A stretch of 61,573 bases of DNA from a virus (lineage: Duplodnaviria; Caudoviricetes), in the IMG/VR virus record IMGVR_UViG_3300036791_000517, positions 1 to 61,573 of that record. One strand, written 5' to 3'. The first letter of the stretch is position 1. The number at the start of each line of letters is the position of its first letter. The position numbers and the translations under genes were made by a program. The notes below the pieces were generated by a model. The model ran no database searches and was not told where the DNA came from. It saw only the letters and a program-made list of their open reading frames with translations. Positions 128-54,231 of the stretch are shown piece by piece.

Positions 128-1631
128 CCGCCTGATCAATCCTTTCATGATGGCGCTGCGCGGCGCTCTCGACGCGGGCAAGGCGTTCATCGGGCGCACG
201 GGGGGATTGACCGACTACGCACCGATCTTCGACAAGGCTATCGGCAAGCAGCGCAACGCGCCGCAGCTTTCGGATTTTGTCCATCAGGCGTCTGAGCTCG
301 GTCTGTTCGAGACGACGGCCAGCGTCGAATATCAGCGGGCGCTCTACGGCATATCGACCAGCCTCTTGCAACGTGCCACCGATTGGGCGACCAATGTTTT
401 CATGGCGGCCAACGCCGCTGTCGAGAACATGAACCGCTTCGTCACGGGCATCACGGCGTACAATCTTGAGATCAAGAAACTCCAGCGTGAGAAGCAGGGC
501 GATCCTGAGAATTGGCACCAGCAGGCGGTCGATTACGCCATCGACGTCATGTACAAATCTGCCGGTGACTATCGCAACTGGAACAAGCCGTCGCTGTTCA
601 ATAAAGGGCCGGTGTTACGACTGGCCAGTCAGTACAAGCTCTACCCGCAGCGCGTCATTGCGAGTTTCATCGAATCGGCGGTCGGTACGTTCAAGGGCGA
701 GACCAAGGAAGCGCGGATGGAACATTTCCGCCGTCTTGCCGGATTGACAGGGGTTACGATCGGCGCGGCGGGCGTGCTGGGTCTGCCGACTGAAATTCTC
801 AAGGCACCGCTCAACGCGCTGTATCTGGCGGGCGTTACGAACTACACGGCGGACGACGCCGAGAACAAGTTCCGTCAACTGATGGCGACACATTTCGGAC
901 CGATCGGTCAGGTCATCAGTGACGGCGTGTCTCGCCTCGGACCGGTCGATATCGGCGGCCGGGTAGGTCTCAGCAACACGCTGTTCTTCAGCTCACCGAC
1001 ATCGCGCAAACCGCGTGACATCATGGGCGCAGCGGTCGGCGTGATCTTTGGTTCGGGCGGCAACATGATGCAGGACACCATCAAGGGTGTTCAGTTCATG
1101 GTGCAGGGCCTGCAGGCGATGAACGATGGCGCCTACGCTGAGGGTCGACAGCTTCTACTGAAGGGCGCACGCTGGACGGTGAACGTTCGTGCGTTGGCCG
1201 ATTCGCTGGATGCCGCCACCTCCGGCGAGGCGACGGTAACGCCGAGCGGCCGGGTGATCAGACCGCCAATGAGCACGCAGGAACGCATCATCCGTGCCAC
1301 TGGCTTCCAGCCGACCAGCGCCACGATGCAGCGTGAGCACCACGATCTGATCAAGGGCATGGCCGACCGCTACACCGCCGAGCGCACCCGTCTGGTGCAG
1401 GAATGGGCGGGGGCGACGTCGGCCGAGCGGATGATGATTCAGAAGCGCATCGACGCGTTCAATCGCCAGTATCCGCTAGAGACCCAGCGCATCACGCGTG
1501 ATGTCCTGCTCAAGGCTGTCGGGGTGCGGGCCAAGGGACAGAAGCAGCCGCAGGAAGAGATGGGCTTGCCATTGAGCAAACAAACGCGTCCATTCCTGCG
1601 TGAAGAGCCAGCCTACGGCGTGCCGCGGTAA
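3..1631 (+). CDS. C-terminal part of giant virion/ejection polyvalent protein (continues from 54231 across the junction)
   Basis: Same frame as the ORF starting at 54231 (position 61458 = position 12, both 0 mod 3). Helical, amphipathic sequence typical of the C-termini of large internal virion proteins. Confidence 0.85.
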   Translation: MSRLAGASYFITNATEPGVLGAPNMMDHHNPVRVYGEMANTYRLINPFMMALRGALDAGKAFIGRTGGLTDYAPIFDKAIGKQRNAPQLSDFVHQASELGLFETTASVEYQRALYGISTSLLQRATDWATNVFMAANAAVENMNRFVTGITAYNLEIKKLQREKQGDPENWHQQAVDYAIDVMYKSAGDYRNWNKPSLFNKGPVLRLASQYKLYPQRVIASFIESAVGTFKGETKEARMEHFRRLAGLTGVTIGAAGVLGLPTEILKAPLNALYLAGVTNYTADDAENKFRQLMATHFGPIGQVISDGVSRLGPVDIGGRVGLSNTLFFSSPTSRKPRDIMGAAVGVIFGSGGNMMQDTIKGVQFMVQGLQAMNDGAYAEGRQLLLKGARWTVNVRALADSLDAATSGEATVTPSGRVIRPPMSTQERIIRATGFQPTSATMQREHHDLIKGMADRYTAERTRLVQEWAGATSAERMMIQKRIDAFNRQYPLETQRITRDVLLKAVGVRAKGQKQPQEEMGLPLSKQTRPFLREEPAYGVPR

Positions 1632-1643
1632 CCCCGGGAGTTA
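1629..1643. promoter_or_regulatory. Palindrome family B site TAACCCCGGGAGTTA
   Basis: Overlaps the TAA of the giant gene and supplies the GGGAG SD for ATG 1647. Confidence 0.7.
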
Positions 1644-1646
1644 GAC

Positions 1647-6345: not shown

Positions 6346-6532
6346 ACGGCTGGTCAGTCAGCTGAAAGCGAAAGGCAAACCGGAGAGCAGTGCCTACGCC
6401 ATCGCGACGAAGGCTCAGCAGCGCGCTGGCAATCTCAAGCCAGGCACGCAAGAGCTTACCAAGCAGGGTGCGACACGACAGGCGATGGGAGCCGAAGGGC
6501 GGGCTAAGGCTCGCGCGGCGAGAAATAAATGA
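6329..6532 (+). CDS. Small basic hypothetical protein
   Basis: GAGG SD, ATGA coupling to the next gene. Confidence 0.7.
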   Translation: MPKILERLVSQLKAKGKPESSAYAIATKAQQRAGNLKPGTQELTKQGATRQAMGAEGRAKARAARNK

Positions 6533-6774
6533 GCGCTCCATCAGGCCGGGTCTACTCCGCTTACGATGTCGCCTACGAGCATCGTCCGGCCGAAAAACTC
6601 AAGCACGCCGAACGGGTCAAGGCCCATCGTCACATGGTTGCTCGCTACGGCAAAGCGGCATTGGCAGGCAAGGATGTCGATCATATCGTAGCGCTGCAAG
6701 GCGGCGGGTCGAACGCTCCGAGCAACTGGCGGCTGCGCTCGATCAGCGCCAACCGCGCTGATAAAACCTATTAG
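6529..6774 (+). CDS. HNH endonuclease
   Basis: DVDHIVALQGGGSN...NWRL...NR fits an HNH core. Confidence 0.85.
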   Translation: MSAPSGRVYSAYDVAYEHRPAEKLKHAERVKAHRHMVARYGKAALAGKDVDHIVALQGGGSNAPSNWRLRSISANRADKTY

Positions 6775-7261: not shown

Positions 7262-10255
7262 TCAGTCGAGACTTTTGAACCGTTCATTGGCGGGCAGGCT
7301 GAGGTCGAACTGCAGGACGTGCTCCATCTGGGCAGGATGATCGACGATCAACCCGGCGGTGAGTGAGCGCCGGAAACCCGGCTTGACGCAGCGGCCGTTC
7401 TTGATCAGCACGCGGATCGCGCGATGCGGGTTGATGTCGGCGTTCTCCGGCAGGCGCAGCCATTTTTTATACTTGGCATAGCTCACCAGCAGATAGTCGC
7501 TGGCGACACGGGCGACCCATTCATTGGCGGCCGGAAACGGATTGTAGACCACCTGAGCGCGGCGTCCGTGGCCCTGCACCGGCAGCGCGTGGTCGGGTTT
7601 GTAGGCGACAGAGTTCTTGTGCTTGTTCAGGAACTCGGCAATGCGATCGGCCTGAACGTCGGGATCGTCGGCGTTGGTCGACATATCGTCGAGCGTGACA
7701 CGCTGCTTGTTGACCAGCGAGATTATAAACTTCTCCATTGACACCATGTCAAAGTCGAACAGGCCGAGCGACTTGGCAATGCTGGCGCCGACCAGCAGGC
7801 AGGATGCCCCGGCTTCCCAGAACCGCTCGCGCTCCGTCAGGTTCAAGTTGCGGTGCAGTTCTCTCGCCTTGTCGATGACGAACTGGCGAATGCTCTCGTG
7901 GTGCTTGCCCAGTACCTCGGCGTAGGCCAGACCGGCGACGCCGTAGTGATGGTACTGCAGCTGGTCTCTGGTCTTGGCGACCAGATCAGGCTGCAGGTTG
8001 ATGCGGCGCAGGGTGTCCGGTATCTCGATCTCCAGAATTCGAGCGCCCTGCGCATCAGTATCGGCACGCTGCGCCGCATCGCGCAGCGAGTCGTTGGCCG
8101 CTGCAACCAGCATGGTGCGCGACGTCGATATCTCCCGTTCCTGCGCCGCACGATTGAGCCGACCGACTTCACTGCCTGCTGTCGCCTGCAGGATCAGCCT
8201 TGCCAATTTCCGTTGCTCGCTCGGATCGGTGCTCAGCTCGTCGAAGTAACTCGGCAGGTTATTCAGGCGGTTCAGGCGGCTGATGATGAAGTTGGCCGTC
8301 GACTGCGTGACCTTGCCTTTCTTGCCGTAGTACACGCTGAGACTGGTCTCAAGCGCCGCCGATTTGCCCTTGCCACTACCCGACGACGTGGCAAATACGA
8401 CGATGCCATCGACCGGCGTGAACATCACCAGCGGGGCAGCGAACGCCGTTGCGATAATAACCTCCATCTCGACCAACCCCTTGCCGATGAACAGGCTGGC
8501 GTATTCTTTCCACTTGGCAAGATCGCCGCGCGGCGTGGCGAACTCTTCAATGTGGTGTGAGGTGGATCGTACGCCATCCTTGCTGAACATCCGGCCGCCG
8601 AAAGCAAACCCTTCGATCTCGCCTTTCGGCATCACCCAGCCGAGCCGCGGCATGTCGCGCACCTGCATTCGCTCACGGACTTGCTCGATCCACGACACCA
8701 TGAATTTTTTCACCGTTGTTGTTTTTTCCGGATGCCAGAAGAGGCCGCGCTCGAAGCACTGCGTGCCGAATGTCTGCATGACGTTGATCGAACCAGCCGA
8801 AACACTGAAGGCGTTTTCGTCATCAGCTTGCTTGCCCGAAGGGATGCAAAATTGGACCTGCCCTTTGCCCTCGGCACTATCGACATATTCCATGTTGTAA
8901 ATCGGCGACGAGAACACCGGCTCGGCGTCGAGTGCGCCGACGATGTAACCATCGTCGCGACGCCTGAACCCGATGGGTAAGGCGATCGGTACAATCTTCG
9001 ACGTTGACATTGTGTCAAGCGCCGACACTGAACCGGTGTGGCCGTTGACGTAGGTTAGCGATGGGGCATCGCCGCCGCGCAGGCCACGCTGGGCGTAGTA
9101 AATCGGCGAATGGCCTTGATGATTGAAAGTGCACCGGGCGCAGATTGCCGCCGCCTCCGAACTAGCAGCCGCTATGGTAGCGCAGGCGGGCCAACCCTGC
9201 GGCTGAGCGGTGTCGAACTTATCGTCGGTCAGCCCGCTGTCGTACCGAACATCGTCTTTCGAAAGCGCATGGAAATAATCTCGACCGTCTTGGATGTAAT
9301 GACAGAGCTTGGCGAACTCGAACCACAGGGGTTCGCGATCTCCGTCACCGCCGCGAGCTTCACTGTCCGCAACAACTGGACAAGCTCCTCGGAGGAGGTC
9401 GACAGAGGTGCACACACGAGAAGCTGCCAGACTGGTAAGGGCTCGCTCATGTTCTGCTCCATGGATGGCGGGACGTGGTGGCAGGATCGCCGGGTCGAAG
9501 GCTGCGGTGTAGGTCGTGCGGGCAACCCCGGGGGTTAGCGGGAAGCGCGCCAGTGCCGCCGTCAGCGCAGCGAGCGGCATCTCGCTGCCGAAATTTAAAA
9601 CCCTACATTCTAAAGGGTTATTCGGATCTTTGCGATTGAAGCTGGTCGGCAGGCGCAGCAGGGTTGCCGGGTTGCGACTGACACCGACGTCGAACTTGAG
9701 ACCATGCGCCTGTGCGGCGGCGATCAGACGGTTGGCAAGGTCTTGCCAAAGTGCTGGTACAATAACCTGATCGAGAACGATGTAGGCGTGCAGCCCACGC
9801 CCGGTGCTGACCAAGGGCCCGAGCCGCAGCCCGGTGTCGTCCAAAAACGGCAGCAGGGCGGCTAAAGCGGCCGCCTGAGAGGGATAGCCGGTCGGCTTGA
9901 CATCTAGGTCAAGAACCAGCGACCGCATCCAGCGGGCAAATTTACGGCCTCTGGACGCGACCCGGTGGTTGCCCTTCATCGTCTCGTACTGCGACTGAGC
10001 CGAGAGGCAGAAAAAAATTTCAGCGTCTATGCGATTAAGAAACGCCACGAACGACTGCAGGAAGCCGAACTCAACCATGCTGGCGTAGGCCCGCCCGCCG
10101 CCTTTATAGGTGACGGTGCCGTTGCCGCCGAAAGCATGGATGTTCACAAAACTGTCGGCCGGATCAGTTAAACTCCACGGGACAACGCAGCCTAGGAACT
10201 GCGCCAGCGGGGCGGCATTGCCCGTGCCGCCCCCGAACGGTGTCGTGCTCTCCAT
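7262..10255 (-). CDS. DNA primase-helicase (AEP/RepB-like primase + Cys-rich PriCT-like region + DUF927-type NTPase)
   Basis: LDLDVK...STGRGLHAY...LLRLP primase motifs. CPV...C...C..C cluster. GSGKGKS Walker A and FDE Walker B. AAGGAGG SD. Confidence 0.85.
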   Translation of the reverse strand: MESTTPFGGGTGNAAPLAQFLGCVVPWSLTDPADSFVNIHAFGGNGTVTYKGGGRAYASMVEFGFLQSFVAFLNRIDAEIFFCLSAQSQYETMKGNHRVASRGRKFARWMRSLVLDLDVKPTGYPSQAAALAALLPFLDDTGLRLGPLVSTGRGLHAYIVLDQVIVPALWQDLANRLIAAAQAHGLKFDVGVSRNPATLLRLPTSFNRKDPNNPLECRVLNFGSEMPLAALTAALARFPLTPGVARTTYTAAFDPAILPPRPAIHGAEHERALTSLAASRVCTSVDLLRGACPVVADSEARGGDGDREPLWFEFAKLCHYIQDGRDYFHALSKDDVRYDSGLTDDKFDTAQPQGWPACATIAAASSEAAAICARCTFNHQGHSPIYYAQRGLRGGDAPSLTYVNGHTGSVSALDTMSTSKIVPIALPIGFRRRDDGYIVGALDAEPVFSSPIYNMEYVDSAEGKGQVQFCIPSGKQADDENAFSVSAGSINVMQTFGTQCFERGLFWHPEKTTTVKKFMVSWIEQVRERMQVRDMPRLGWVMPKGEIEGFAFGGRMFSKDGVRSTSHHIEEFATPRGDLAKWKEYASLFIGKGLVEMEVIIATAFAAPLVMFTPVDGIVVFATSSGSGKGKSAALETSLSVYYGKKGKVTQSTANFIISRLNRLNNLPSYFDELSTDPSEQRKLARLILQATAGSEVGRLNRAAQEREISTSRTMLVAAANDSLRDAAQRADTDAQGARILEIEIPDTLRRINLQPDLVAKTRDQLQYHHYGVAGLAYAEVLGKHHESIRQFVIDKARELHRNLNLTERERFWEAGASCLLVGASIAKSLGLFDFDMVSMEKFIISLVNKQRVTLDDMSTNADDPDVQADRIAEFLNKHKNSVAYKPDHALPVQGHGRRAQVVYNPFPAANEWVARVASDYLLVSYAKYKKWLRLPENADINPHRAIRVLIKNGRCVKPGFRRSLTAGLIVDHPAQMEHVLQFDLSLPANERFKSLD

Positions 10256-10272
10256 CACGACGGCCCTCCTTG

Positions 10273-11520
10273 TTAGGTGGCGGACGACCCCCCGGACGGC
10301 TTCAGCAACTGGTCGATCCGGCCCTGCAGATCGCCCGGCTCTTCGCCATCTTCATCGTCGGTTTCAGGTTCCTGCTCGGCCGCCTGCACCGTGACCTGGG
10401 GCTGACCACCGTTCGGCGTGACCGGCGCGCTGCGCTTGCGCCGCGGCTTGGGTTGCTGAGCAGCAGCCAGTTCCGCCTTGAGGCGAGCAATCTCCTGCTG
10501 CTCGGCGGTCATGGGTTGCTCACGCACCATAGCGCGAGCCTTCTCCAGGTTTTCCTCGGTGATCTGCACGCCGATTTGCGCACCGCCGAAAGCGCCAGCC
10601 GAGACGCCCGTTGCCGGTGCTTGAGCAGCCGGTGGCGGGGTTGCACTGAAGGCAGTCGCTGGCGACGGCGCAATTGGTTGGGCACGTAGCGGATGAACGT
10701 TAGTCGGCGTCGGTTGCTCGACAGGCTGATCGGGATCGCCGGTCACTTCGGTCGCTTCCTCGTTCAGGATGCGGTCGACCAATTCGTTGTCCTGCAGAGC
10801 GATCACCTCCTGCGCCTCGTGATCGTTCAACACGCGGGTCGGCGTGAAGATGATCTTGGGAAAGGCCGCCTCGGTATCGAACGACAGCTGCATGACGATG
10901 CCGTAATAGCGGTAGCCCTGCATGTGCAACTGGGTTTCGAGCTCGGACAGCGCGTTGAAAGCCGACGGCGGCAGGCGTAGCAGCATCGGCCCGCCATAGC
11001 GTTCGTTTTTCAGGTCGAGCGCCGGGACGACAGCGGTGCGCTTGTTGTCGGAGCATGCCTTGCCCTTGCGCCCATCATCCATAGTGCGCGAGCCGAAGGC
11101 GTCCCATCGGCAGCCTCTACAGGTCTCGTTTTGTTTTTTCGGCGCAGCCGGGTCAGGCTTCAGCCCATTGGTCGACCAGCAGTCCGGTTGCTTGAAGCTG
11201 TCGTCCTTGAATTTCTCGATGTAATAGGTCTTGCTGATTGCACTGGCCGACTTCACGATCACCACGTCGATCGTCGGGATGGCAAACTTCTGGCCGTTGG
11301 GCATCTGCCCGAGCAGCTGTTCGGTGGTGCCGCGATGGCGAATGCCCCACGTCTTGCCTTTGAAATTGATGCTGGCAAACGACGGCTTGATGCCAGCCGC
11401 AAGAGAACGCGGATCGGCCTTGGACGTTTCGACGACCGGCGATTGCTGGCCAAGATTGGCGATCAGCTGGGCGAGACTACGGTTACCTTGGTTGGGTGTC
11501 GGCAATTGGCTCATGATCAT
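10273..11520 (-). CDS. Putative ssDNA-binding/recombination protein
   Basis: PDCWS...C..C...GS...GKAC motif common in phage replication modules, with a low-complexity acidic C-terminal tail. Confidence 0.55.
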   Translation of the reverse strand: MIMSQLPTPNQGNRSLAQLIANLGQQSPVVETSKADPRSLAAGIKPSFASINFKGKTWGIRHRGTTEQLLGQMPNGQKFAIPTIDVVIVKSASAISKTYYIEKFKDDSFKQPDCWSTNGLKPDPAAPKKQNETCRGCRWDAFGSRTMDDGRKGKACSDNKRTAVVPALDLKNERYGGPMLLRLPPSAFNALSELETQLHMQGYRYYGIVMQLSFDTEAAFPKIIFTPTRVLNDHEAQEVIALQDNELVDRILNEEATEVTGDPDQPVEQPTPTNVHPLRAQPIAPSPATAFSATPPPAAQAPATGVSAGAFGGAQIGVQITEENLEKARAMVREQPMTAEQQEIARLKAELAAAQQPKPRRKRSAPVTPNGGQPQVTVQAAEQEPETDDEDGEEPGDLQGRIDQLLKPSGGSSAT

Positions 11521-15862: not shown

Positions 15863-15905
15863 GCAACCTCCGAGGTTAAGGGGGGTGAGATGTCAATCTC
15901 ACCCC

Positions 15906-15934
15906 ATTATGCTCTCTTTTTGACATAATGTCAA
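15906..15934 (-). promoter_or_regulatory. Sigma70-type promoter whose -35 is half of a family A palindrome
   Basis: TTGACA-17 nt-CATAAT on the minus strand. Confidence 0.75.
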
Positions 15935-15943
15935 GAAGAAAAT

Positions 15944-16342
15944 TTACGATTTACGCGGTTTCACGTTCTTACTGGCGTAGACCAGCGCGGTCGCCGCCTT
16001 AACGGCGAACATGCAGGCCGTCTCGGCATGGGTGATGGCGACCGCCGAATGACGCGCCGCCTCATCGATTGCATGCCACACCGTGGAGGCTGGAACATCC
16101 TCCGGCATGCCGTCCTGCGGCAGCATCGGTTTCTTTTGGTCGCGCAATTTCTCGCAGGTCGTGATGAACGCGGCCGCCAGCAGATGAAGCTGACCGACTT
16201 GCATAAGCCTATCGGGGTTGAACCCGGCACGTACCTGACGCAGTGCAGTGTCGCTCACATCGACCATCAGATTGACCGTGCGTGACGCGGTCGGATCAGC
16301 GGCTTGCTGTTCCAGTTCTTCTTCCGTCAACATCGTTGGCAT
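15944..16342 (-). CDS. Acb2/Tad1-like helical hairpin protein (candidate nucleotide-signal sponge)
   Basis: VR.GFNP...V..L...AA.FI...R..AVAITHAETACMFAVKAATA, recognised by eye only. Confidence 0.55.
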   Translation of the reverse strand: MPTMLTEEELEQQAADPTASRTVNLMVDVSDTALRQVRAGFNPDRLMQVGQLHLLAAAFITTCEKLRDQKKPMLPQDGMPEDVPASTVWHAIDEAARHSAVAITHAETACMFAVKAATALVYASKNVKPRKS

Positions 16343-16366
16343 GTCATGTTCCTTTCGTTTCGACAT

Positions 16367-19050: not shown

Positions 19051-19242
19051 TCATGATGCTGGTACCGGGCGCCAAACGCTGATGATCTCTTCGTTACGAA
19101 CGCGCAGCGGCGCATCGCCGGTTGGCGTCGGGATCATCCCAATGACACCCCACGAATGCACTTCTTCTATGATCAGCAGCAGGCCATTGGCCCAATGCTC
19201 ACCAGTGTTAAGGCGAATAACGTCGCCGATCTGTGGCTTCAT
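19051..19242 (-). CDS. Small SH3/KOW-like hypothetical protein
   Basis: IGDVIRL...LLIIEEVHSWGV beta-barrel pattern. ATGA overlap. Confidence 0.6.
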   Translation of the reverse strand: MKPQIGDVIRLNTGEHWANGLLLIIEEVHSWGVIGMIPTPTGDAPLRVRNEEIISVWRPVPAS

Positions 19243-19631
19243 GGTCTGCCCTCGCGTCGCTTAACCTCTGGGGTTGGTGCCATCTGATTGATCTCCCCGA
19301 TGCTGAGCGGCTTGCGCCATTGGATTGAATGCCGCTCAAATTCTTTGATCAGCTTCTCGTTCGTGCCAAGCACGCGCGTGTAGTGATAGCAAAGCGTCTG
19401 CAGGTGACGCCGTGTCTTGCGGTCCCAACGGGACACTTCCACCAGTGGCTGAACCGCCAATGACAAATGCCATAGCGGCCGCCCTCCGGCGTAAACGGTT
19501 CATTCCATGCCGATGTTGACCGTCAGCACAGCGCTAACATCATGCTCCATGAACCAGCTGTGTCCGGTCAGTATATGCTTCTCCGGATCGAACACCGGGT
19601 GAGCCAGGGCGAAAATCGCTTGTTTGTGCAT
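19239..19631 (-). pseudogene. Gene interrupted by an in-frame TGA (pseudogene or readthrough)
   Basis: GAGGAG SD + ATG 19631. Reads MHKQ...NIGME-TGA(19502-19500)-TVYAGGRPLWHLSLAV..., in the same frame as the ORF ending at 19239. Confidence 0.55.
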
Positions 19632-21037: not shown

Positions 21038-21066
21038 ATTATACTTCCCCCTTGACACCATGTCAA
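21038..21066 (-). promoter_or_regulatory. Perfect-consensus sigma70 promoter with family A palindrome as -35
   Basis: Minus strand TTGACA-TGGTGTCAAGGGGGAAG(17)-TATAAT upstream of gene 21020. Confidence 0.9.
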
Positions 21067-21080: not shown

Positions 21081-21170
21081 TTATTTCTTGCCGAACGTGC
21101 GGACCAACACCACGGCAAAGATCGTACAGCAGATGAGAAACAATGCGATCAGCCAGCACAGGCAGATCAT
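21081..21170 (-). CDS. 29-aa single-TM peptide
   Basis: MICLCWLIALFLICCTIFAVVLVRTFGKK. ATGA overlap with the upstream gene. Confidence 0.4.
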   Translation of the reverse strand: MICLCWLIALFLICCTIFAVVLVRTFGKK

Positions 21171-21472
21171 TTCTTGCCGTTTCTCATTTTCGCCCACACG
21201 CGCTGATAGCCGATGGCCCGTCCGGCTGCTTCGAGCGTGGCGTTCTGCGGTCGTCGGGTCTTACCCTCGAACCACTGCTTGACGGTACCGGCTGATGGCC
21301 CGCCTTGCTCTTCGACTTCCTTGTAATCGGCACGAGCAAGGTTACGTTTGCCGAAATGGTCCTGCATGATGGTGCGGATCGCGTCTATTGCAGGATCTTT
21401 ATTTACAAAAACGTACGCCTGATAAATTCTCATTGTACCTTTTGGCGTGCGCTCTGTTGGCCGTTTACTCAT
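21167..21472 (-). CDS. XRE/Cro-like helix-turn-helix protein
   Basis: YKEVEEQGGPSAGTVKQWFEGKTRRPQNATLEAAGRAIG. TAATG coupling. Confidence 0.75.
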   Translation of the reverse strand: MSKRPTERTPKGTMRIYQAYVFVNKDPAIDAIRTIMQDHFGKRNLARADYKEVEEQGGPSAGTVKQWFEGKTRRPQNATLEAAGRAIGYQRVWAKMRNGKK

Positions 21473-24754: not shown

Positions 24755-24774
24755 GATTAACCTCCGGGGTTTTG

Positions 24775-29525: not shown

Positions 29526-29687
29526 GAGGAAAGTTCTTAACTCCCGGGGTTACGCGTAGTTTCTTTTAGTAACCACAATGATCGTGTGGTCTTTACGGCA
29601 AGGTTAAGTCCAGCAGAAAGTTTTGTCTGGACGTATTAGATGTGCAACGAGCGGCTATCGTGCCTGCGACGCGCGCAACAGGTCACA

Positions 29688-30400: not shown

Positions 30401-30452
30401 TTGACACGATGTCAAGTCGTAACCCCTGGGGTTAAGGCTTACCTCTGTACAT

Positions 30453-31604: not shown

Positions 31605-31633
31605 TTGACAAACCCCCGAGGTTAAGCTATATT
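31605..31633 (+). promoter_or_regulatory. Sigma70 promoter with family B palindrome in the spacer
   Basis: TTGACA-17 nt-TATATT. AAACCCCCGAGGTTA at 31610-31624. Confidence 0.85.
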
Positions 31634-31672
31634 GTCTCATGAAGCTTTGGCAACAGACACAAGGAGCGCATA

Positions 31673-32529: not shown

Positions 32530-32661
32530 CGTTCTGACATTCCGGTTGTGCCATAGGCAGACCAGGCTGGCATAGGCGAGACGCCATTGGCCCGCGCGCG
32601 CCCGCTGCACGGCAAACTTGAGGTCGATCAACCAGATCCGGCGCTTCAATTTGGTGCTCAT
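32524..32661 (-). CDS. Small hypothetical protein downstream of terL
   Basis: GAGG SD, MSTKLKRRIW... Confidence 0.45.
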   Translation of the reverse strand: MSTKLKRRIWLIDLKFAVQRARAGQWRLAYASLVCLWHNRNVRTL

Positions 32662-32669
32662 AGCTAACC

Positions 32670-34112: not shown

Positions 34113-34594
34113 TCGACAACCTCGGGGGTTACGTCGATCGCTCGGGAACTGTCACTCGACGTCTCCTTGTCGAACGACAGCTTGCGGTCGCCGATCACGA
34201 TGTTGATCTGGACCCGGCCGCTGCCGTCGTCGCGCACGAGCGCCGTCTCGCCGAGCTGGCCGAGCTTGGCGAGGAACTGCAGACCAGCGACGCGCGCCGC
34301 ACCCGGTACCTGCTTGTCGCGAATCAGGTCGACCGTCTCGACCAGCAGTTCCTCGATCATCGCCGCCGCCTTGACCGAGACGCGCTCGCGCAGCGTCTGC
34401 CGGGTCGAGGCGCTCCACAGCTGCGCCTCCTCGACGAGATGGACCTGAAAGATGGGATTTTCCTTGATCCGTTCGAACTGCTCGCTGCTCACCTGGGCTC
34501 CTTGCAGGACCACTTCCAGGGGCCGGATGTCACGCGCGATCTCGCGCGCGATACGTGCCAGATCGACTTCGCTGAGCTCGCGTTGGGTTGGCAT
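34109..34594 (-). CDS. terS: Probable terminase small subunit
   Basis: Immediately upstream of terL with ATGA overlap. Helical N-terminus and C-terminal VQINIVI beta strand. Confidence 0.65.
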   Translation of the reverse strand: MPTQRELSEVDLARIAREIARDIRPLEVVLQGAQVSSEQFERIKENPIFQVHLVEEAQLWSASTRQTLRERVSVKAAAMIEELLVETVDLIRDKQVPGAARVAGLQFLAKLGQLGETALVRDDGSGRVQINIVIGDRKLSFDKETSSDSSRAIDVTPEVVE

Positions 34595-34603
34595 GGCCGC
34601 TCC

Positions 34604-34632
34604 TTGTAGGGTTATTACATAAAAGCTACTAT
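34604..34632 (+). promoter_or_regulatory. Candidate promoter for the portal/virion operon
   Basis: TTGTAG-17 nt-TACTAT in the divergent terS/portal gap. Confidence 0.5.
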
Positions 34633-34669
34633 GGACTGGATCTATTGGTAAGTTCGTCCGGGGGCGCGC

Positions 34670-36868
34670 GTGGCATCCTTCGATCCATCACCTGCTCCGA
34701 CGATGCCCCTGCAACAGCGCTTTCCGGTGTCGCTCGGCGTCATGACCAATGCCGACATCGACGCCCAGCAGGCCGAGCAGGACAAGATCCAACAGGACGC
34801 CCAGAACCTCGCCAGCCAACATCCCTATCAGGGTTTGCTCGGTTTCATCCGCAATGAATGGGACATCATGCGGCGTCACCGCGACACCGTGGTCGGCTGG
34901 TCGGAGCGCCTGCTGTCGGCGATGCGCGCCTTCAATGGTGTCTATGATCCGCAGAAACTGGCCGAGATCAAGAAGTTCGGCGGCAGCGAGGTTTATGCCC
35001 GGCTGATCGCCGCCAAGTGCCGCGGGGCGTCCTCGCTGTTGCGCGACGTCTATCTGGGGGCCGACCGGGCGTGGGGACTCGAGCCGGAAGCCGACCCGCC
35101 GGTCCCCCAGTCGGTTCAGCAGGCGATCTACACGCTGATCCAGAGCGAGCTGCAGCAGGCGGCGTCGATCGGCATGCAGATCACGCCTGATCAGATCCGC
35201 GAGCGGCTGTGGGGCATGATGGCCAAGGCGCGCACCTCGGCCAAGAAAATGATCGAGGATCAGGCGAGGCTGGCCGAAGACAAGCTCGACGAGCTGTTGA
35301 CCGAAGGCAATTTCTACGGCGCGCTGGCCGACGTCATCGTCGACATCCCGTTATTCCCCTACGGCGTGCTCAAGGGTCCAACGGTGCGCATGGTGTTCGA
35401 GGTCGACTGGTCGACCGGACGCCCACTGATGCGGCGCAAACCTAAATTATGGTGGGAGCGCATCTCGCCGTTCGACGTCTACTGGACACCGGGTGCGGCC
35501 GACATCGAGGACGCGTCGATCATCGAGCGCACGCGTTTCACCCGGACCGATCTCAACGATCTTCTGGACGTCGAGGGCTACGACAAGGCGGCGATCCGCG
35601 CGGTGCTCGACAATTACGGGCGCGGCGGTTTGTCGATGGACTGGGACCTCGCCGAGGGACCGCGCGCGCTCTTGGAAAGCCGCGAGGATCCGTGGTTCAA
35701 CCGCAGCCGCATGATTTCCTGCCTGCAATATACCGGCAACGTGCAGGGCCGCATGCTGATCGAGCACGGCTTCAGCGAGGCCGACATTCCCGATCCGATC
35801 CGCGACTACGCCATCGAGGCGTGGATGGTCGGCCCCTATTTGATCAAGGTTCAACTCGGTGTATCGCCGCGCCGCCGCCATAAATACTACGTCACGAGCT
35901 GGGAGAAGGTGCCGGGGACGCCGGTCGGCAACGCCATTCCCGATCAGATTTCCGACCTGCAGGAGGTTTGCAATGCCTCTATACGGGCCTTGGTCAACAA
36001 CCTCTCGATCGCGTCGGGACCGCAGGTCGTGGTCAACGATGATCGTCTGGCTGGCCTTGAGACGGGAGAAGATCTCTACCCGTGGAAACGCTGGCACGTC
36101 ACCAACCCTCTGCTCACCAGCTCGACCGAGAAGCCGGTCGAGTTCTTCCAGCCGCAATCCAACGCCGATCAGCTGTTAGGCGTCTTCAAACAAATTTACG
36201 ACTTGTCGGACGATGTCTCGGCCATCCCGAAATATCTCTCCGGCAATTCGCCGGGCGGCGGTGCCGGGCGAACGGCGAGCGGTCTGGCCATGCTGATGGG
36301 TAACGCCAGTAAGATCCTCCAGACGGTGTGCGCCAATATCGATCGTGACATCATGTCACCGGCCCTCACCAACCTGATGGACCTCGTGCTGCTGACCGAT
36401 ACCAGCAACCTCCTGCAGGGCACCGAGACGGTCACGCCGAAGGGCGTCGCCGTCGCCATGCAGCGCGAGACCATGCGGACCCGCCAGCTCGAATTCCTGC
36501 AGCTCACCGGCAACCCGATCGACATGACGATCATGGGACCGAAGGGCCGGGCGGCGGTGCTGCGTTCGGTGTCGACGACGATCGGCCTGCCCGGTGAAGA
36601 GATCGTGCCGTCCGATGACGAGCTGCAGCAGCAGCAGGCGCAGGCACAGGCCAACGCTCAGGCTGCGGGGGCCGCTGGACACGTGCAGGCTCCCGGAGGT
36701 AGTCCAGGTGGCCCGGGTGGCGGACCGCCCCCAGCGGGCCCCGGCGGACCGCCAGGAGGCCCTGCAGCGGCGGGCAACCCCCGGCAGATGCCAGCGCCGG
36801 GTGGCGACAGCATGCAGGCGCAGGCGCCGCGCACCGCGACGTTCCTTCAACGGCCAAAAGGCAGGTAA
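34670..36868 (+). CDS. Portal protein
   Basis: 732 aa, first virion gene. KGP...ERISPFDVY, LVNN...SGPQ and RTASGLAML motifs, Q/P/G-rich tail. Confidence 0.88.
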   Translation: MASFDPSPAPTMPLQQRFPVSLGVMTNADIDAQQAEQDKIQQDAQNLASQHPYQGLLGFIRNEWDIMRRHRDTVVGWSERLLSAMRAFNGVYDPQKLAEIKKFGGSEVYARLIAAKCRGASSLLRDVYLGADRAWGLEPEADPPVPQSVQQAIYTLIQSELQQAASIGMQITPDQIRERLWGMMAKARTSAKKMIEDQARLAEDKLDELLTEGNFYGALADVIVDIPLFPYGVLKGPTVRMVFEVDWSTGRPLMRRKPKLWWERISPFDVYWTPGAADIEDASIIERTRFTRTDLNDLLDVEGYDKAAIRAVLDNYGRGGLSMDWDLAEGPRALLESREDPWFNRSRMISCLQYTGNVQGRMLIEHGFSEADIPDPIRDYAIEAWMVGPYLIKVQLGVSPRRRHKYYVTSWEKVPGTPVGNAIPDQISDLQEVCNASIRALVNNLSIASGPQVVVNDDRLAGLETGEDLYPWKRWHVTNPLLTSSTEKPVEFFQPQSNADQLLGVFKQIYDLSDDVSAIPKYLSGNSPGGGAGRTASGLAMLMGNASKILQTVCANIDRDIMSPALTNLMDLVLLTDTSNLLQGTETVTPKGVAVAMQRETMRTRQLEFLQLTGNPIDMTIMGPKGRAAVLRSVSTTIGLPGEEIVPSDDELQQQQAQAQANAQAAGAAGHVQAPGGSPGGPGGGPPPAGPGGPPGGPAAAGNPRQMPAPGGDSMQAQAPRTATFLQRPKGR

Positions 36869-42082: not shown

Positions 42083-42900
42083 TGCTTGACTTCCCCAACT
42101 CACCGACCAACGGCCAGCTGTTCACGGGGGCGAACGGCGTCATCTATCAATGGAACGCGGCGGGCGGGCTGTGGCTCAACTACGGCGTCGGTATGAACAG
42201 CGCCATCGTCAGCCTTACGCCTCCGGCCAATCCGGTGGCCGGTCAGATGTGGTGGCGCTCCGACACCGGCCAAATGTTCATCTGGTACAACGACGGCAAC
42301 TCGACCCAGTGGGTGTCGGTCACCGCGCCGTCGGTGGTGACGCAGCCGCCCGTGACGTGGCGCATGCTGTCGCGTCAGGTTGTATCGAGCGCGGTGCCGC
42401 AAGTCGATTTCCCCAACATCCCGTCCGACATTAACGAGTTGATGTTTCGTGTCGGCAACGCGGTGCCAGTAAATAATGACGTGGGATTTTTCCTTCAGTA
42501 CTTCGATGGAACGGGAGCGATTGATGCAACTGCTGGTCACTACAGTGCGTCGGGTGTCCTCACTCAGGTATCGCAAGCAGTGGGGTCCAGTGCTCCAGCT
42601 TCTGCTGACAATGCCGGTACTGGAATACGCATGACTTACAACGCGGTTGGCAACGGAGTTTATAACGCTGTCGTCAGCGGCATTTCTGTTGATGGCAGTG
42701 TCATCAACATCAGGAACGCCACGCAGAACCGCCACATGATATTCAAGGGCATGTATCCTAACGGTGGCGGCACTTCCTACAACGTATTTGATGGCGGCGG
42801 TTTCTGGTTCAACAACGCGAGCATCATCTCGGGCGCTCGCTTCTTCTTCGGTAGCGGCAACATTGCCAGCGGCGCGTTCGAACTGTGGGGGAGCCCCTAG
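42082..42900 (+). CDS. Fibre protein 2
   Basis: TAATG coupling. LDFPNSP..GQ module, then NDGNS.QWV module, then ...FELWGSP domain. Confidence 0.82.
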   Translation: MLDFPNSPTNGQLFTGANGVIYQWNAAGGLWLNYGVGMNSAIVSLTPPANPVAGQMWWRSDTGQMFIWYNDGNSTQWVSVTAPSVVTQPPVTWRMLSRQVVSSAVPQVDFPNIPSDINELMFRVGNAVPVNNDVGFFLQYFDGTGAIDATAGHYSASGVLTQVSQAVGSSAPASADNAGTGIRMTYNAVGNGVYNAVVSGISVDGSVINIRNATQNRHMIFKGMYPNGGGTSYNVFDGGGFWFNNASIISGARFFFGSGNIASGAFELWGSP

Positions 42901-44409
42901 ATGGCCGCCCTCGACTTCCCCAACACCCCGACCGATCAGCAACTGTTCGCCGCGCCCAACGGCATCACCTACCAGTGGCAGGCCACGCCCGGTGTGTGGA
43001 TCGTCTACCAGGGCGGCGTGCAGACGGGTGATTTTTGCGCCACTGGAACATCGCTCGGCACCATCGGTAATTTCGTCGTCACCGGGCTTTCGGTCCTCAG
43101 TGGAAATTTGGGTTCTTGGTACAATCCAACGACCGGGCGTTACACGCCTCCGGCAGGGCGCTACCGGATTGATGCTGGATTTTATGCTGCAGCGGCGGGC
43201 GGCTCGACACTGATCGAAGTCAGCATTCGCAAGAACGGCGTAATCTTGCCGGGTACTCAGTTGGGGCAGACGACGCCCGGCGCGAACTTGGTTTCTACTG
43301 CGCAGGCTGCCGTGGCGGTCGATGCCAATGGCACCGACTATTTTGAGATGTGGGTGCGGTCGTATAATTTTTCGGCCACCAGCTCGCAGGTTTTCTTCGC
43401 GGCGTTTCCGATCCTCGGCGCGGTCGGGCCGCCGGGACCGGTCGGGCCAGCGTCGGCGGGTGATTTCACTGCGACTTTCCAGAGCGGCGGTGGCATTCCA
43501 ACGTCGGATACTACGCTCGTCCTGCCAACGGTGGCGACGGGAAATTCTGGAGGCTGGTATTCAAATTCGACCGGGCGCTTCACGCCGCCCGCCGGGCGCT
43601 TTTTCCTCTTTGCTGAGTACATGGCGACACAGACGGCTGGGTCGCATTGCAGTGTCAGCATCAGGAAGAACGGCGCGGCTATTCAGTACAATCGAGGCTC
43701 TGTCGCTGGAAACGGCTACTATGCGAACCCTTCAGTCCTCATCCAAGCTGACGCCAATGGCACCGACTGGTTCGACATGCAGATCAGTGCCAACGCCGGA
43801 GCGCAAGGATCGTGGTTCGTCTTTGGTGCCTTCCCCATCACCGGCATCCAAGGCATCCAAGGACCGCCGGGACCGGGCAATGCGTGGCGCATCCTGTCGC
43901 GTCAGACCCCGACTGCCGTGGGCTTCGTCGAGTTGCAGAACATCCCGAGCGATGTGAACGAACTGATGTGCAACGTCGATCTGATCCCGTCGTCCAACAC
44001 GGGCGGCCTGATGGCGCAGGTGTACGACAATGCTGGCGTGCTCGACACCGGGGCTCATTACGCATGGTCGAACTGGGTGTTCAGCAGCGCCGGGGCGGCT
44101 AATGCCGGTCCCGGCTCATCGAGCGGCACTTCGACAGGCTTCAACACAGGTTTCTCGTTGTCTTATGGTGCCGTTGGCAATCTTGCGAACTACGGCATCT
44201 CGGCCAATTTCAAGATCGCGAATATTCGTGCCAGCAAAGTCAAGCAGGTCAATTTCCAGATGACCCAAGTCGATGCCAGCAACACCATTACCTACAGCGG
44301 TGGCGGTGGCGGCCTGCGCAATGTGGCGACTTCGATCACCGGCCTACGGATGTTCTTCAATGGCATGAATATCGCCAGCGGCAGCTTCGAAGTATGGGGG
44401 TCACCGTAA
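42901..44409 (+). CDS. Fibre protein 3 with two C1q-like domains and short collagen triplets
   Basis: LDFP module, (TGR[YF]TPPAGR...IRKNG...DANGTD[YW]F) x2, GPPGP, then ...FEVWGSP. Confidence 0.82.
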   Translation: MAALDFPNTPTDQQLFAAPNGITYQWQATPGVWIVYQGGVQTGDFCATGTSLGTIGNFVVTGLSVLSGNLGSWYNPTTGRYTPPAGRYRIDAGFYAAAAGGSTLIEVSIRKNGVILPGTQLGQTTPGANLVSTAQAAVAVDANGTDYFEMWVRSYNFSATSSQVFFAAFPILGAVGPPGPVGPASAGDFTATFQSGGGIPTSDTTLVLPTVATGNSGGWYSNSTGRFTPPAGRFFLFAEYMATQTAGSHCSVSIRKNGAAIQYNRGSVAGNGYYANPSVLIQADANGTDWFDMQISANAGAQGSWFVFGAFPITGIQGIQGPPGPGNAWRILSRQTPTAVGFVELQNIPSDVNELMCNVDLIPSSNTGGLMAQVYDNAGVLDTGAHYAWSNWVFSSAGAANAGPGSSSGTSTGFNTGFSLSYGAVGNLANYGISANFKIANIRASKVKQVNFQMTQVDASNTITYSGGGGGLRNVATSITGLRMFFNGMNIASGSFEVWGSP

Positions 44410-44888
44410 TGGCTCTAGCCGAAATGGACTTCCCTGCTGGTCCGCTCGTTGGGCAGCACTTCACCAATGCCTACGGCACGGTCTATCTGTGGGACGGCGA
44501 GAAGTGGACGATCGACGCCGAGCCGTTGCTGGTCGTGCAAGTGCCGCTCAATTTCGACATCCTCTCGCAGATCCGCGTGTTGCTGCAGGACACTGACAAT
44601 ACGATCGGGCAGTACCGCTACACCGACGCCGAGCTGATCGCCAATATCAACATGGGCTTGTTGGAGATGTATCGAATCCGGCCCGACATTTTCCTCCAGC
44701 TCAATTTTCAAATACCGCTTGTCACGACCGATCTCAGCGTGCCATGGCCGCTCGAACCGCAATACGCACCGTCGATCGTTTACTACGCTGTCGGCATGGC
44801 GCAGATGCGTGATGACGAGGCGACGCAGGATGCTCGGGCATCGAGTTTCCTGGGCAAGTTCACGTCCATGCTGATCGCTGCTGCTTAA
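44409..44888 (+). CDS. Head-tail adaptor-like protein with N-terminal fibre-docking module
   Basis: MDFP...GQ.F....YLWDGEKW followed by R.LLQD...RY.D.EL...N......RPD. Confidence 0.7.
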   Translation: MALAEMDFPAGPLVGQHFTNAYGTVYLWDGEKWTIDAEPLLVVQVPLNFDILSQIRVLLQDTDNTIGQYRYTDAELIANINMGLLEMYRIRPDIFLQLNFQIPLVTTDLSVPWPLEPQYAPSIVYYAVGMAQMRDDEATQDARASSFLGKFTSMLIAAA

Positions 44889-44902
44889 CCCCGGAGGTTG
44901 TC

Positions 44903-45523
44903 ATGGCTTCCGTTTTCGATCGTATCTTCGCCGATGTTCGCAAAGACTTGCCGAGCGTGGCTGACGCGGTGCTGCGACAGGAGCTGTTCCGGGTGATGGA
45001 CGACTTCACCCAGCACACCAACATCTGGCAGGAGACGCTGACGGTCAACATCCTGCCCGACATTGCCAGCTACGTTTTACCGGCGACGACGGCCGGTCAG
45101 ATCAATCGTCTGATGTTTGTTTACGATGTAACTCAGCCGGTCATGAGTTGGCCAATGGGCGGCATTATGATGCGCGTGCCTGGGGTGATGGTGCTGCCGC
45201 GGACGCTGGGCAATTCGGCGACATGGGGTGCCATCGTTGCCAAGCGAACCAGCGATGTCGATGCTACGACGCTCTATCCGGTGGTCGACGATTGGATCCC
45301 CGACAAATACGCCGACACGGTGGGACGCGGGGTCCTCGCCCGGCTGATGGTCGAGCCACAGAAACCCTATTCCAACCCGATGCTCGCCCAGGCCAACCAG
45401 AAGGCGTACATCTCCGGTCGGTCGATGGCGCGTGCCAACGATGGTCACGCCAACGTGTTCAACGCTCAGAACTGGGCGTATCCGCAGAGCTTTGCGACTG
45501 TCACGCGCAAACCATGGACTTGA
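44903..45523 (+). CDS. Tail adaptor/tubular protein (putative)
   Basis: DF...T.IWQE and G.LARLM..P.KPYSNP.LA. The SD lies inside a family B palindrome. Confidence 0.7.
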   Translation: MASVFDRIFADVRKDLPSVADAVLRQELFRVMDDFTQHTNIWQETLTVNILPDIASYVLPATTAGQINRLMFVYDVTQPVMSWPMGGIMMRVPGVMVLPRTLGNSATWGAIVAKRTSDVDATTLYPVVDDWIPDKYADTVGRGVLARLMVEPQKPYSNPMLAQANQKAYISGRSMARANDGHANVFNAQNWAYPQSFATVTRKPWT

Positions 45524-53026: not shown

Positions 53027-53028
53027 CT

Positions 53029-54231
53029 ATGGCTGATACGGCGTTCGACCCTGGCGCTCCGCCGATGCTGTACGGCAATCAGCCGCCGCCGCTTGCCGAA
53101 CCGCCACCTGTTGAGCAAGCGCAAGCGCCGCCGTCGCGCGCTATCAATCCTAATTGGTATCCGCCGCTTCCGCGGGAGCCAACCCCGGAGGTTAGCCAGC
53201 CGCCAGCGCAGGGCGATCAGCCAACGCCAACGCATGAACCGCCGCCCTTGCCGACGAAGGAACCGCCCCCGGCCGTTCAGCAGCCAGACTTCGACGAGCA
53301 ACAGGAAGAGCTGGCTCGTAAAGCTCAGGAAGATCAAATGTACAATGGCACCGTGTTGGATACGACGGGTAAGCCGTTGCGCCCGCCAAAGCCAGTGACG
53401 GTCGATGACTATGCGAACAAGCGCGACGACATCAAGGAACTGCAAACGCTCATTCCGACTTTGCCGCCCAAGAGCCAGCCGTACTACATCAAACAAATGC
53501 AGGTGATGCGGCGCGAGCTCAATAATCAGGTCGATCAAGAGAATAAAAAAGCGTTGAAGGATTATCACGCCAAGCTGAGTGCCGACCTGCAGCCGACCAA
53601 GGTTCCGTATCAGAGCCCTAAGGTGCGCGCCGATCAAGCTGCCGTTCTAAAAGGTCCGGGTGACGAACTGCTGGCGCAGTCGCAGCAAGAGCAGGCCGCG
53701 ACAGACCCCAAAGAATCGTTTGACGCGCGCTACAATTTTACAGTGTCGCCTCTGAACACGATGGCAGGTCCGAAGAAAGTCGGGCCGGACGGCAATCCGA
53801 CGGCGGATTATGGACAGCTCTACCAAGCCGCAACCAACATTGCTTTGACGAACCAGCACATCCAGCCGGATCAGGTGATGCGCTACGTCATGATGGCGGG
53901 CTCGCCAGTTGTCACTTTGGACAAGGATAAGCACGTCGTTCCGACCATCAACGGCACTGGCATAAACGGTCGCAAGGGTGCGGCGGGTACCAATTACGAG
54001 GTTATCGGTCGCGATCCGCGTGACTATCACCTGTTGCGATTTGCCGACGGCACGACGTTGAGCGTCGACCCGATCAGCAAGGCGGCGCTCGAACGGGCGC
54101 GCGTTGAAGGCTATAAGGCAGGAAAGAAGTTCTTTGTTGACGAAGCGGCCAAGAAAGCGGAGGCCGAAAAGCCGGGCTTGGTCGAACGCGCCTATCGCAC
54201 CATCTGGCCTGCCATACCGAAGAGTGAATAA
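53029..54231 (+). CDS. Internal virion protein (putative)
   Basis: 400 aa, Pro-rich N-terminus, TAATG coupling to the giant gene. Confidence 0.75.
   Translation: MADTAFDPGAPPMLYGNQPPPLAEPPPVEQAQAPPSRAINPNWYPPLPREPTPEVSQPPAQGDQPTPTHEPPPLPTKEPPPAVQQPDFDEQQEELARKAQEDQMYNGTVLDTTGKPLRPPKPVTVDDYANKRDDIKELQTLIPTLPPKSQPYYIKQMQVMRRELNNQVDQENKKALKDYHAKLSADLQPTKVPYQSPKVRADQAAVLKGPGDELLAQSQQEQAATDPKESFDARYNFTVSPLNTMAGPKKVGPDGNPTADYGQLYQAATNIALTNQHIQPDQVMRYVMMAGSPVVTLDKDKHVVPTINGTGINGRKGAAGTNYEVIGRDPRDYHLLRFADGTTLSVDPISKAALERARVEGYKAGKKFFVDEAAKKAEAEKPGLVERAYRTIWPAIPKSE

Follow-up and report, generated by a model that had tools for sequence, protein, structure and literature searches.

Short repeats dispersed over gene junctions, such as the start-associated sequences (SAS) and the repeats of the Cluster O mycobacteriophages, have been known in actinophages for more than ten years and have no assigned function. 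Here we describe the same phenomenon in an unrelated, large group of podophages of the proteobacterial type. Our subject is a 15-base palindrome that we call family B, with the perfect form TAACCCC-N-GGGGTTA, in the IMG/VR virus record IMGVR_UViG_3300036791_000517. We analyzed the whole record, a complete podophage genome of 61,573 bases that has direct terminal repeats and comes from a soil metagenome, and we refer to it as the window. We tentatively read family B, with a confidence a little short of even, as a binding site on double-stranded DNA that is scattered over the genome and would be recognized by a dimeric phage protein; it sits in tiny intergenic gaps and also supplies a stop codon and a Shine-Dalgarno (SD) sequence. 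Within this clade the palindrome consensus differs by lineage, and family B swaps at orthologous junctions with a second palindrome, family A (TTGACA-N3-TGTCAA). These differences provide comparative leverage on the question of which protein co-varies with the palindrome.

The Cluster O mycobacteriophages, represented by Corndog, carry 17-bp dyad-symmetric repeats with the sequence 5'-TGTTCGGNNNCCGAACA (PMC4351075). Like family B, these repeats are short palindromes present in tens of copies in a phage that shows no sign of being temperate. Many of them lie between genes or close to gene 5' ends and about a third are intragenic, and the authors predicted a dimeric DNA-binding protein; no function is assigned to them (PMC4351075). 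The two systems differ in host phylum, virion type and sequence, and the Cluster O repeat has a 7-3-7 structure with invariant arms, whereas family B has a 7-1-7 structure with degenerate inner bases. Cluster O repeats are described as not closely linked to starts (PMC4351075), whereas about half of the family B sites are start-linked and provide an SD and a stop codon. There is no shared lineage or consensus between the phage described here and Cluster O; its nearest cultured relative is a Rhizobium podophage.

Cluster K mycobacteriophages contain SAS and extended SAS (ESAS), with the sequence 5'-GGGATAGGAGCCC (PMC3203893). SAS occur in 11-19 copies, lie 3-7 bp before mostly ATG starts and include the SD core, all of which recalls family B. 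The upstream stop codon is sometimes within the repeat, and bases that are unable to pair with 16S rRNA are conserved. For the inverted repeats of ESAS, the authors argue against hairpins and for DNA-binding proteins, as we do here for family B. SAS are, however, asymmetric, have one orientation and are confined to the non-structural half of the genome (PMC3203893), whereas family B is palindromic and present in all modules.

The stoperators of Cluster A phages (L5 and its relatives) resemble family B in that many copies of one protein-binding site lie in short intergenic gaps throughout the genome (PMC9283540, PMC4351075). The same stoperator sequence serves as an operator at the promoter and blocks elongation elsewhere. 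Stoperators are asymmetric sites that are oriented with transcription and bound by the monomeric immunity repressor of temperate phages, whereas family B is symmetric. We scanned 70 hand-picked open reading frames (ORFs) of the window with PHROGs and Pfam, and no repressor, integrase or lysogeny module was found among them. Family B lacks the asymmetry and fixed orientation that define SAS and stoperators. The temperate Streptomyces phage phiC31 carries conserved inverted repeats (CIRs), dispersed intergenic sequences of about 17 bp that are bound by the repressor c proteins. To our knowledge, no overlap of CIRs with SD sequences or stop codons has been described. We also know of no CtrA, alphaproteobacterial LexA or FixK box that fits the spacing of family B.

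A palindrome with fixed spacing

The original prediction listed 11 copies of family B in the window, and the motif is present at all 11 coordinates (Table 1). Each fits gTAAC-YY-C-S-G-RR-GTTAc. The exact sequence TAACCCC-N-GGGGTTA occurs once, as predicted, and in none of 100 shuffles. The pattern AACCYCNGRGGTT has 9 exact matches in the window where 0.02 are expected. Allowing one mismatch yields 12 matches (0.29 expected; shuffle maximum 2), which are the 11 listed sites and one further site at 9321. The pattern AACYYC-N-GRRGTT retrieves exactly the 11 listed sites. With 53 AACYYC and 52 GRRGTT half-sites in the window, 0.045 joint sites are expected at each spacing; 11 are found with a spacer of 1 base and none with spacers of 0, 2, 3 or 4. 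A narrower form of the pattern occurs at none of the spacers 0 and 2-10, once at spacer 11, and never with the two arms exchanged. Half-sites on their own show no excess. The composition of SD sequences and stop codons, against which the prediction was to be checked, cannot explain the motif, because the half-site counts predict only 0.045 sites and the other spacings are empty.

We collected relatives by TerL and capsid protein searches, which revealed a large clade: a gene for a related capsid protein is present in at least 595 IMG/VR stretches, and 80 of these were kept. Two complete genomes carry family B: G001 (65.7 kb), which is collinear with the window with 65-79% nucleotide identity in aligned blocks, and G006 (61.5 kb), whose capsid protein is 81% identical. 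G001 has 14 sites, found only with a spacer of 1 (0.07 expected), and G006 has 38, so that the window, G001 and G006 hold 11, 14 and 38 copies against expectations below 0.1. Two further fragments contain 7 and 4 sites, and the reversed control pattern is found 0 times everywhere. An exact scan of IMG/VR with the commonest 16-mer returned 19 stretches. Because 17 of them contain a single match only, we regard multiple copies of family B as a trait of this lineage that is not shared among unrelated phages. The exceptions are a stretch of G006 with 16 degenerate sites and a stretch (L146) with 2.

The sites of the window, G001 and G006 were combined into a set of 63, each oriented by gene direction; for G001 and G006, this direction was taken from synteny blocks and is an approximation. 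The consensus is g/c-TAAC-YY-C-S-G-RR-GTTA-c/g. Its eight invariant positions are not independent evidence, because the search pattern fixes them. Outside these positions, the outer T is present in 53 sites and the outer A in 56, and G or C is preferred on either flank. T never occupies the centre, which is G or C in 59 sites. Free variation is limited to the two inner pairs.

Family B sites at gene starts, in promoters and within genes

Family B is closely associated with starts of translation. A start codon follows GTT by 0-6 nt on the sense strand at 30 of the 63 sites (mode 3 nt; 5 of the 11 window sites), leaving 33 without one, and 26 of the 30 are ATG. Only 3 of the 63 sites have a start on the antisense strand. 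The criterion is permissive, since 15% of random positions pass it and 44% of these have ATG, and both the coupling (P = 2e-9) and the preference for ATG (P = 2e-6) exceed this background. With a strict criterion, that of an ORF 5' edge, 16 of the 63 sites qualify, compared with about 4-5% at random. The TAA of the motif is the in-frame stop of a long upstream ORF in 21 sites, and 13 sites provide both the stop and the SD. In SD-coupled sites, the centre G completes GGAGG.

Five window sites (1629, 15864, 24758, 34117 and 44886) had been proposed to form the SD of the next gene, and in all five the SD lies 2-5 nt before the start. Two of them, 1629 and 44886, also hold the upstream in-frame TAA, as proposed. 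Minus-strand genes are served by three of the five, terL among them. The motif marks true starts and stops in these genomes and can be used to correct gene calls, such as that of terL on the minus strand.

Other copies lie in and beside promoters. The window contains 29 family A sites at no more than one mismatch, mostly in the early block of minus-strand genes and often 0-2 nt upstream of an SD. Some provide the -35 element of near-consensus promoters (for example, TTGACA-17-TATAAT at 21052). We confirmed that the family B site at 31610 fills the spacer of a sigma-70-type promoter, TTGACA-17-TATATT, which matches at 11 of 12 positions and is located in a divergent intergenic region. Because it lies between the -35 and -10 elements, this copy is unlikely to be part of a sense mRNA. 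The sites at 29538 and 30420 do lie next to family A sites, at 13 and 5 bases. By our reading of the sequence, the family A site at 29511-29525 appears to hold the -35 element of a leftward promoter, TTGACA-17-TAAGCT, which would place the family B site at 29538 just upstream of this element. In G001 and G006, family B is likewise paired with A-type palindromes. The two families also replace each other at orthologous starts: a 206-aa structural gene has family B in the window and family A in G001, and a 453-aa gene has family A in the window and family B in G001.

Sites that are not coupled to starts lie within ORFs, after stop codons, or in regulatory regions beside A-type palindromes. The intragenic window sites (9523 and 53180) and those in the 3' ends of upstream ORFs (19262 and 34117) are all read as xxA-ACC-CCN-GNG-GTT. 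All four use rare codons, among them CTA (3.5% of Leu codons) and GTT (17% of Val codons). Some sites follow stop codons and precede terminator-like hairpins, as at the capsid gene of G001 and G006. Family B is found in all modules, inside genes and in promoters, and three window sites (1629, 44886 and 53180) belong to the structural module. These results confirm a mixture of intergenic, gene-5'-end and intragenic positions.

Table 1. Positions and contexts of the family B sites in the window, with examples of family A sites
Feature	Position	Strand	Context
Family B, TAACCCCGGGAGTTA	1629..1643	+	TAA terminates a giant ORF at 1631; GGGAG serves ATG 1647 (402-aa ORF) as SD
Family B, intragenic	9523..9537	-	In the DUF927 primase-helicase gene 7262-10258; read CTA-ACC-CCC-GGG-GTT; G001 has a family B site at the matching place, 26793
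Family B, supplies GGAGG	15864..15878	-	ATG 15862 (79-aa ORF) is 2 nt after GTT; preceded by a 10-bp 5' hairpin and by a family A site at 15920 that resembles a promoter; the start of the G006 homologue also has a family B site
Family B, in ORF 3' end	19262..19276	-	In the 3' end of ORF 19239-19466; 20 nt upstream of ATG 19242 and not its SD
Family B, supplies GGAGG	24758..24772	-	4 nt before ATG 24754 (75-aa ORF)
Family B, regulatory region	29538..29552		13 bases from family A site 29511-29525
Family B, sole perfect site, TAACCCCTGGGGTTA	30420..30434		5 bases separate it from the family A palindrome at 30401-30415; borders an AT-rich stretch free of ORFs
Family B, promoter spacer	31610..31624	+	In the rightward promoter 31605-31633; upstream of gene 31673-32146
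Family B, supplies GAGG	34117..34131	-	5 nt before terL ATG 34112; within the 3' end of ORF 34109-34594
Family B, gene junction	44886..44900	+	TAA terminates 44394-44888; GGAGG serves ATG 44903 as SD; family A occupies the orthologous junction of G001
Family B, intragenic	53180..53194	+	In ORF 53029-54231; read CCA-ACC-CCG-GAG-GTT; no start codon after
Family A, example	31415-31429		
Family A, example	31490-31504		
Family A, example	21052-21066		
Family A, example	15920-15934		

Lineage-specific palindromes in related phages

Every complete relative that we examined has its own high-copy palindrome of 15-17 bp, present in 20-46 copies. Families A and B occur together in the window and in G001. 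G006 combines family B with 15 copies of TTAACA-N3-TGTTAA, an A-like palindrome in which both arms have changed together. The palindrome of G010 is TCACGCCC-S-GGGCGTGA (20 copies), that of G012 is TTACGCCC-S-GGGCGTAA (25 copies), and that of G015 is TTACC-N5/6-GGTAA (about 42 copies). The cultured Rhizobium phage RHph_TM3_14A carries TTACCT-N4-AGGTAA, with 36 sites at no more than one mismatch. Since this phage can be grown and has 36 copies of its own palindrome, the question of what these repeats do can be addressed directly in a tractable host.

In RHph_TM3_14A, an annotated start follows 10 of the 36 sites at a distance of 2-6 nt, whereas 18 sites fall within annotated genes. Its 23 one-mismatch sites comprise 6 G.U, 5 C.A and 12 transversions, from which we conclude that pairing is not favoured in this phage. 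The G010 palindrome does not contain an SD. At two starts (2483 and 8138) it lies 2 nt upstream of a separate AGGAGG, and at several other places it lies 2-4 nt from candidate start codons. A 30-nt start test of the G010, G012 and family A palindromes gave values of 0.64-0.80 against 0.51-0.53 and of 0.38-0.60 against 0.41-0.49; these are not clearly above random, and the link of these palindromes to starts therefore follows from our reading of their context. Because the G010 palindrome adjoins a separate AGGAGG, the SD content of family B is not the conserved feature. We conclude that what is conserved is a lineage-specific palindrome at gene junctions.

A proposed duplex site for a dimeric protein

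We propose that TAAC-YYC-S-GRR-GTTA may act as a duplex recognition site whose two AACYYC half-sites are about one helical turn apart, and that a dimeric, sequence-specific protein encoded by the phage would read it. The genome is almost fully coding, and most copies would be placed in the few free bases at gene junctions. Family B would be fused with ribosome-binding sites because its loose inner bases (YY/RR) and outer TAA would let the same 15 bases act as upstream stop and downstream SD. In or next to promoters, as at 31610, 29538 and 30420, the bound protein could repress or modulate initiation. At junctions inside operons, it might act on the elongating polymerase in the manner of a stoperator or have another genome-wide role.

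Several observations argue for this duplex site. Family B has the features of an operator, in that two inverted half-sites are held at a fixed spacing and some copies overlap promoter elements. Sites also occur where no signal in a sense mRNA is needed (in a promoter spacer, upstream of a -35 element and inside ORFs). The outer bases, flanks and centre are symmetric at positions on which translation makes no demand. The joint change of both arms between lineages and the restriction of multiple copies to this lineage also speak for a duplex site. In the 63-site alignment, the variable pairs are able to pair in 81.3% of cells compared with 82.1% for shuffled alignments, 412 of 500 of which score at least as high, and the covariation score is 0.134 compared with 0.146. 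Perfect palindromes account for 9 of the 63 sites, where independent arms predict 15.7. The lack of covariation and the small number of perfect palindromes indicate that selection keeps the half-site sequence and not the pairing. This result argues against a hairpin that hides the SD and for recognition of half-sites, as by a protein dimer on duplex DNA. The original prediction of a second operator class is thus the best-supported reading, given the symmetry, the fixed spacing, the three promoter contexts and the location upstream of the same gene in three genomes, but it stands as a proposal rather than a proven function. That a protein binds family B, which protein this is and what its binding does are what we infer.

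A number of points weigh against a duplex site for a dimeric protein. The phage looks lytic, as no integrase was found in the 70 ORFs, and a logic of repressor and stoperators would have no obvious use in such a phage. The 30 of 63 sites that are tied to starts at a tight distance of 2-6 nt, with ATG at 26 of the 30, would look like a translation signal. The inner bases are asymmetric on the sense strand, with mostly GAGG or GGAG in the right arm and CCCC or CTCC in the left, although an SD superimposed on a symmetric site would produce such a pattern. Among uncoupled sites, the better SD is on the sense strand in 19, on the antisense strand in 5 and equal in 9. Across lineages, both arms of the palindrome change together (RHph_TM3_14A, G010 and G012), which is predicted by a dimeric protein and an RNA hairpin alike, and the G010 and G012 palindromes would form stable hairpins.

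A candidate reader with a predicted GIY-YIG fold

The gene behind the promoter at 31605-31633 (31673-32146, plus strand) encodes a 157-aa protein. A family B site lies upstream of this gene or its homologue in all three complete genomes that carry family B; in G001, this site has one mismatch to the narrower pattern. The 157-aa protein is 64-65% identical to its G001 and G006 homologues. It has 71 homologues, none of them named, and it has no Pfam or PHROG match. We built an AlphaFold (AF2) model from 29 homologues (alignment A1), with a predicted local distance difference test score (pLDDT) of 81. VIA-align placed the catalytic domain of I-TevI first (PDB 1ln0; Z 9.6, root-mean-square deviation 2.8, 85 residues), followed by UvrC, T4 EndoII and R.Eco29kI (Z 5.1-6.5). 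For the last 45 residues, there was a weak match to the DNA-binding helix-turn-helix of I-TevI and I-HmuI (Z 2.7-2.8). Foldseek returned the same families with weak scores (E = 0.1-0.6), and a sequence search of the PDB with the A1 profile gave no match. The model thus predicts an I-TevI-like GIY-YIG fold followed by a C-terminal helix-turn-helix. At what we take to be the positions of the catalytic Tyr, Tyr, Arg, Glu and Asn, inspection of A1 by eye shows that an invariant Arg is present and that the two tyrosine positions read H/N and Y/F.

The homing endonuclease I-TevI, a member of the GIY-YIG group, doubles as a repressor of its own promoter. It shares the predicted fold with the 157-aa protein (PDB 1ln0, 1t2t), but there is no detectable sequence similarity and the 157-aa protein is much shorter. 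I-TevI binds asymmetric DNA as a monomer, whereas family B is symmetric. Homologues of the 157-aa protein also occur in four lineages that have other palindromes, where another gene occupies the upstream region. RHph_TM3_14A and the complete G015 genome, both of which have other palindromes, lack such homologues. The 157-aa protein therefore cannot read all palindromes of the clade, and we rejected it in that role. It is our best candidate for a protein that would bind family B.

A broader conjecture, which we consider unlikely as a whole, is that this soil and rhizobial podophage clade uses lineage-specific palindromes of 15-17 bp as a genome-wide code of gene junctions. Its reader, a phage protein that co-evolves with it, would act at nearly all gene starts, on DNA and possibly also on mRNA. 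Family B would be its extreme form, with stop codon, operator and ribosome-binding site in one unit of 15 bases, a domesticated I-TevI-like nuclease fold would serve as the reader, and families A and B would be interchangeable channels.

Alternative explanations

A serious rival is a start signal at the RNA level. UAAC-YYC-S-GRR-GUUA would be read on the mRNA by a phage protein or RNase, as a RegA- or RegB-like translational operator or as a processing site, and would set the translation or coupling of the downstream gene. We consider this improbable, though several observations speak for it: the coupling of 30 of 63 sites to a sense start against 15% at random, the excess of ATG at these starts, the upstream stop codons held by 21 sites, the proximity of other lineages' palindromes to starts, and the better SD on the sense strand. 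It does not account for sites in a promoter spacer, upstream of -35 elements or deep in ORFs. The GTTA after the SD and the T before AAC are kept even where no stop codon is used, and symmetry of the flanks and centre is needless for single-stranded RNA. The orientation bias of uncoupled sites is largely compositional: the sense strand has 1.5-1.9 times more GGAG/GAGG than CTCC/CCTC genome-wide, so the 19:5 excess is weak (P = 0.07), and its value as proof of an RNA function is reduced.

Less probable still is that family B is a recombination linker or a nuclease target. The junction sequence would promote the exchange of gene cassettes between co-infecting relatives and might be cut or nicked by the 157-aa protein or by an HNH-like protein (6529-6774). 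Sites turn over quickly between genomes that are 65-79% identical, several window sites border genes without a G001 homologue, and all three genomes with family B retain the protein that is predicted to have a GIY-YIG fold (Z 9.6 to I-TevI). Sites are also more evenly spaced than random, with coefficients of variation of the gaps of 0.58, 0.46 and 0.77 (P = 0.054, 0.003 and 0.068), although this may just follow gene lengths. Against this explanation, the phage would cut its own genome, the tyrosine positions of the 157-aa protein presumably read H/N and Y/F, and the intragenic and promoter sites border no cassettes.

An RNA hairpin that sequesters the SD, the second suggestion of the original prediction, is nearly excluded, and we rejected it on folds, pairing counts and covariation. 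One arm does resemble an anti-SD and the other an SD. However, the 1-base spacer allows a stem of only 4-6 bp, and the variable pairs show no pairing or covariation beyond shuffles. On the sense strand, these cells include 46 C.A and 28 G.U against 52 Watson-Crick pairs. When eight window sites were folded with their flanks, seven were no more stable than dinucleotide shuffles (z -0.99 to +0.90). The perfect site at 30420 folds better than its shuffles (z = -2.35), but it lies away from gene starts.

A chance product of SD and stop-codon composition has a negligible probability: TAA and GGAG-like words are common at gene junctions, but 11 sites occur where the half-site counts predict 0.045, the other spacings are empty, the relatives hold 14 and 38 copies, and the reversed control finds none. 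We therefore rejected it on shuffle, half-site and spacing controls.

Genome organization and additional observations

The 70 scanned ORFs indicate a podophage-like layout. Structural genes for an SU10-type portal and adaptor, the capsid protein, tail fibres and internal virion proteins occupy the plus strand from 34670 round to ~7065. A minus-strand block from 31392 down to 7262 contains small early genes and genes for a family A DNA polymerase, an SNF2 helicase, a PD-(D/E)XK exonuclease and the DUF927 primase-helicase. The minus strand also carries terS and terL (34594-32670; terL is 32670-34112), and two small plus-strand genes lie within 31673-32529. Among the 70 ORFs, the scans detected no family of integrases, repressors or RNA polymerases. 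Of the cultured phages, the RHph_TM3_14A group of Rhizobium phages is nearest (67% capsid identity); a megablast search of window positions 29000-35000 against phage records gave no match.

A giant plus-strand ORF of roughly 2,950 aa runs from 54231-61573 on through the record ends to 1-1631. Its sequence includes 38 aa that are present at both record ends, consistent with a terminal repeat. In PHROGs, only the C-terminal 539 aa have matches, which are giant proteins without an assigned function and a DarB-like family (3e-12). A PHROGs search at E up to 0.1 with this ORF and other unassigned proteins gave no match. N4-like hairpin promoters were rejected because no RNA polymerase family is present in the 70 ORFs, though the giant ORF may still qualify.

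Three features lie beside family A or B sites. A 10-bp hairpin, GGGGTGAGAT...ATCTCACCCC (15880-15905, minus strand), is located between an A-type promoter (TTGACA-17-CATAAT) and the family B/SD site of the 79-aa gene, and looks like a stabilizing hairpin at an mRNA 5' end. The stretch at 29940-30400 is AT-rich, has ~460 bases without ORFs, contains repeated AGGTGT and ACACC words and is flanked by two pairs of family B and A sites. This stretch may serve as an origin or encode a non-coding RNA. At 30525-30610, two tandem direct repeats of ~19 bases are each followed by a GC-rich hairpin, which we read on the minus strand as two tandem terminators after a 247-aa gene (30649-31392).

A 105-aa protein (21167-21484, minus strand) has a Cro/CI-like helix-turn-helix by eye and is 76% identical in G001. 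It was not found in G006, which does not have the TTGACA form of family A, and we consider it a candidate reader of family A. The 81-aa protein encoded at 6529-6774 (plus strand) has an HNH-like motif by eye and is kept in 5 of 6 relatives with 40-78% identity. A 415-aa protein (10273-11520, minus strand) gave no named family in an Atlas look-up. Its first ~260 residues are kept in all 6 relatives (39-74% identity), and its C-terminal 150 residues align in G001 only. In RHph_TM3_14A (L029, MN988472.1), the gene at 42239-45322 is annotated as a 'putative integrase protein' and aligns with the DUF927 primase-helicase of the window (26% identity over 930 aa), so by sequence this label appears doubtful. 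Finally, a 140-aa protein (15944-16366, minus strand) scores 30 bits against the hairpin domain Acb2/Tad1 of Pfam (cut-off 27; E = 6e-7), and it may be a sponge that counteracts the cyclic-oligonucleotide-based antiphage signaling system (anti-CBASS) or Thoeris (anti-Thoeris).

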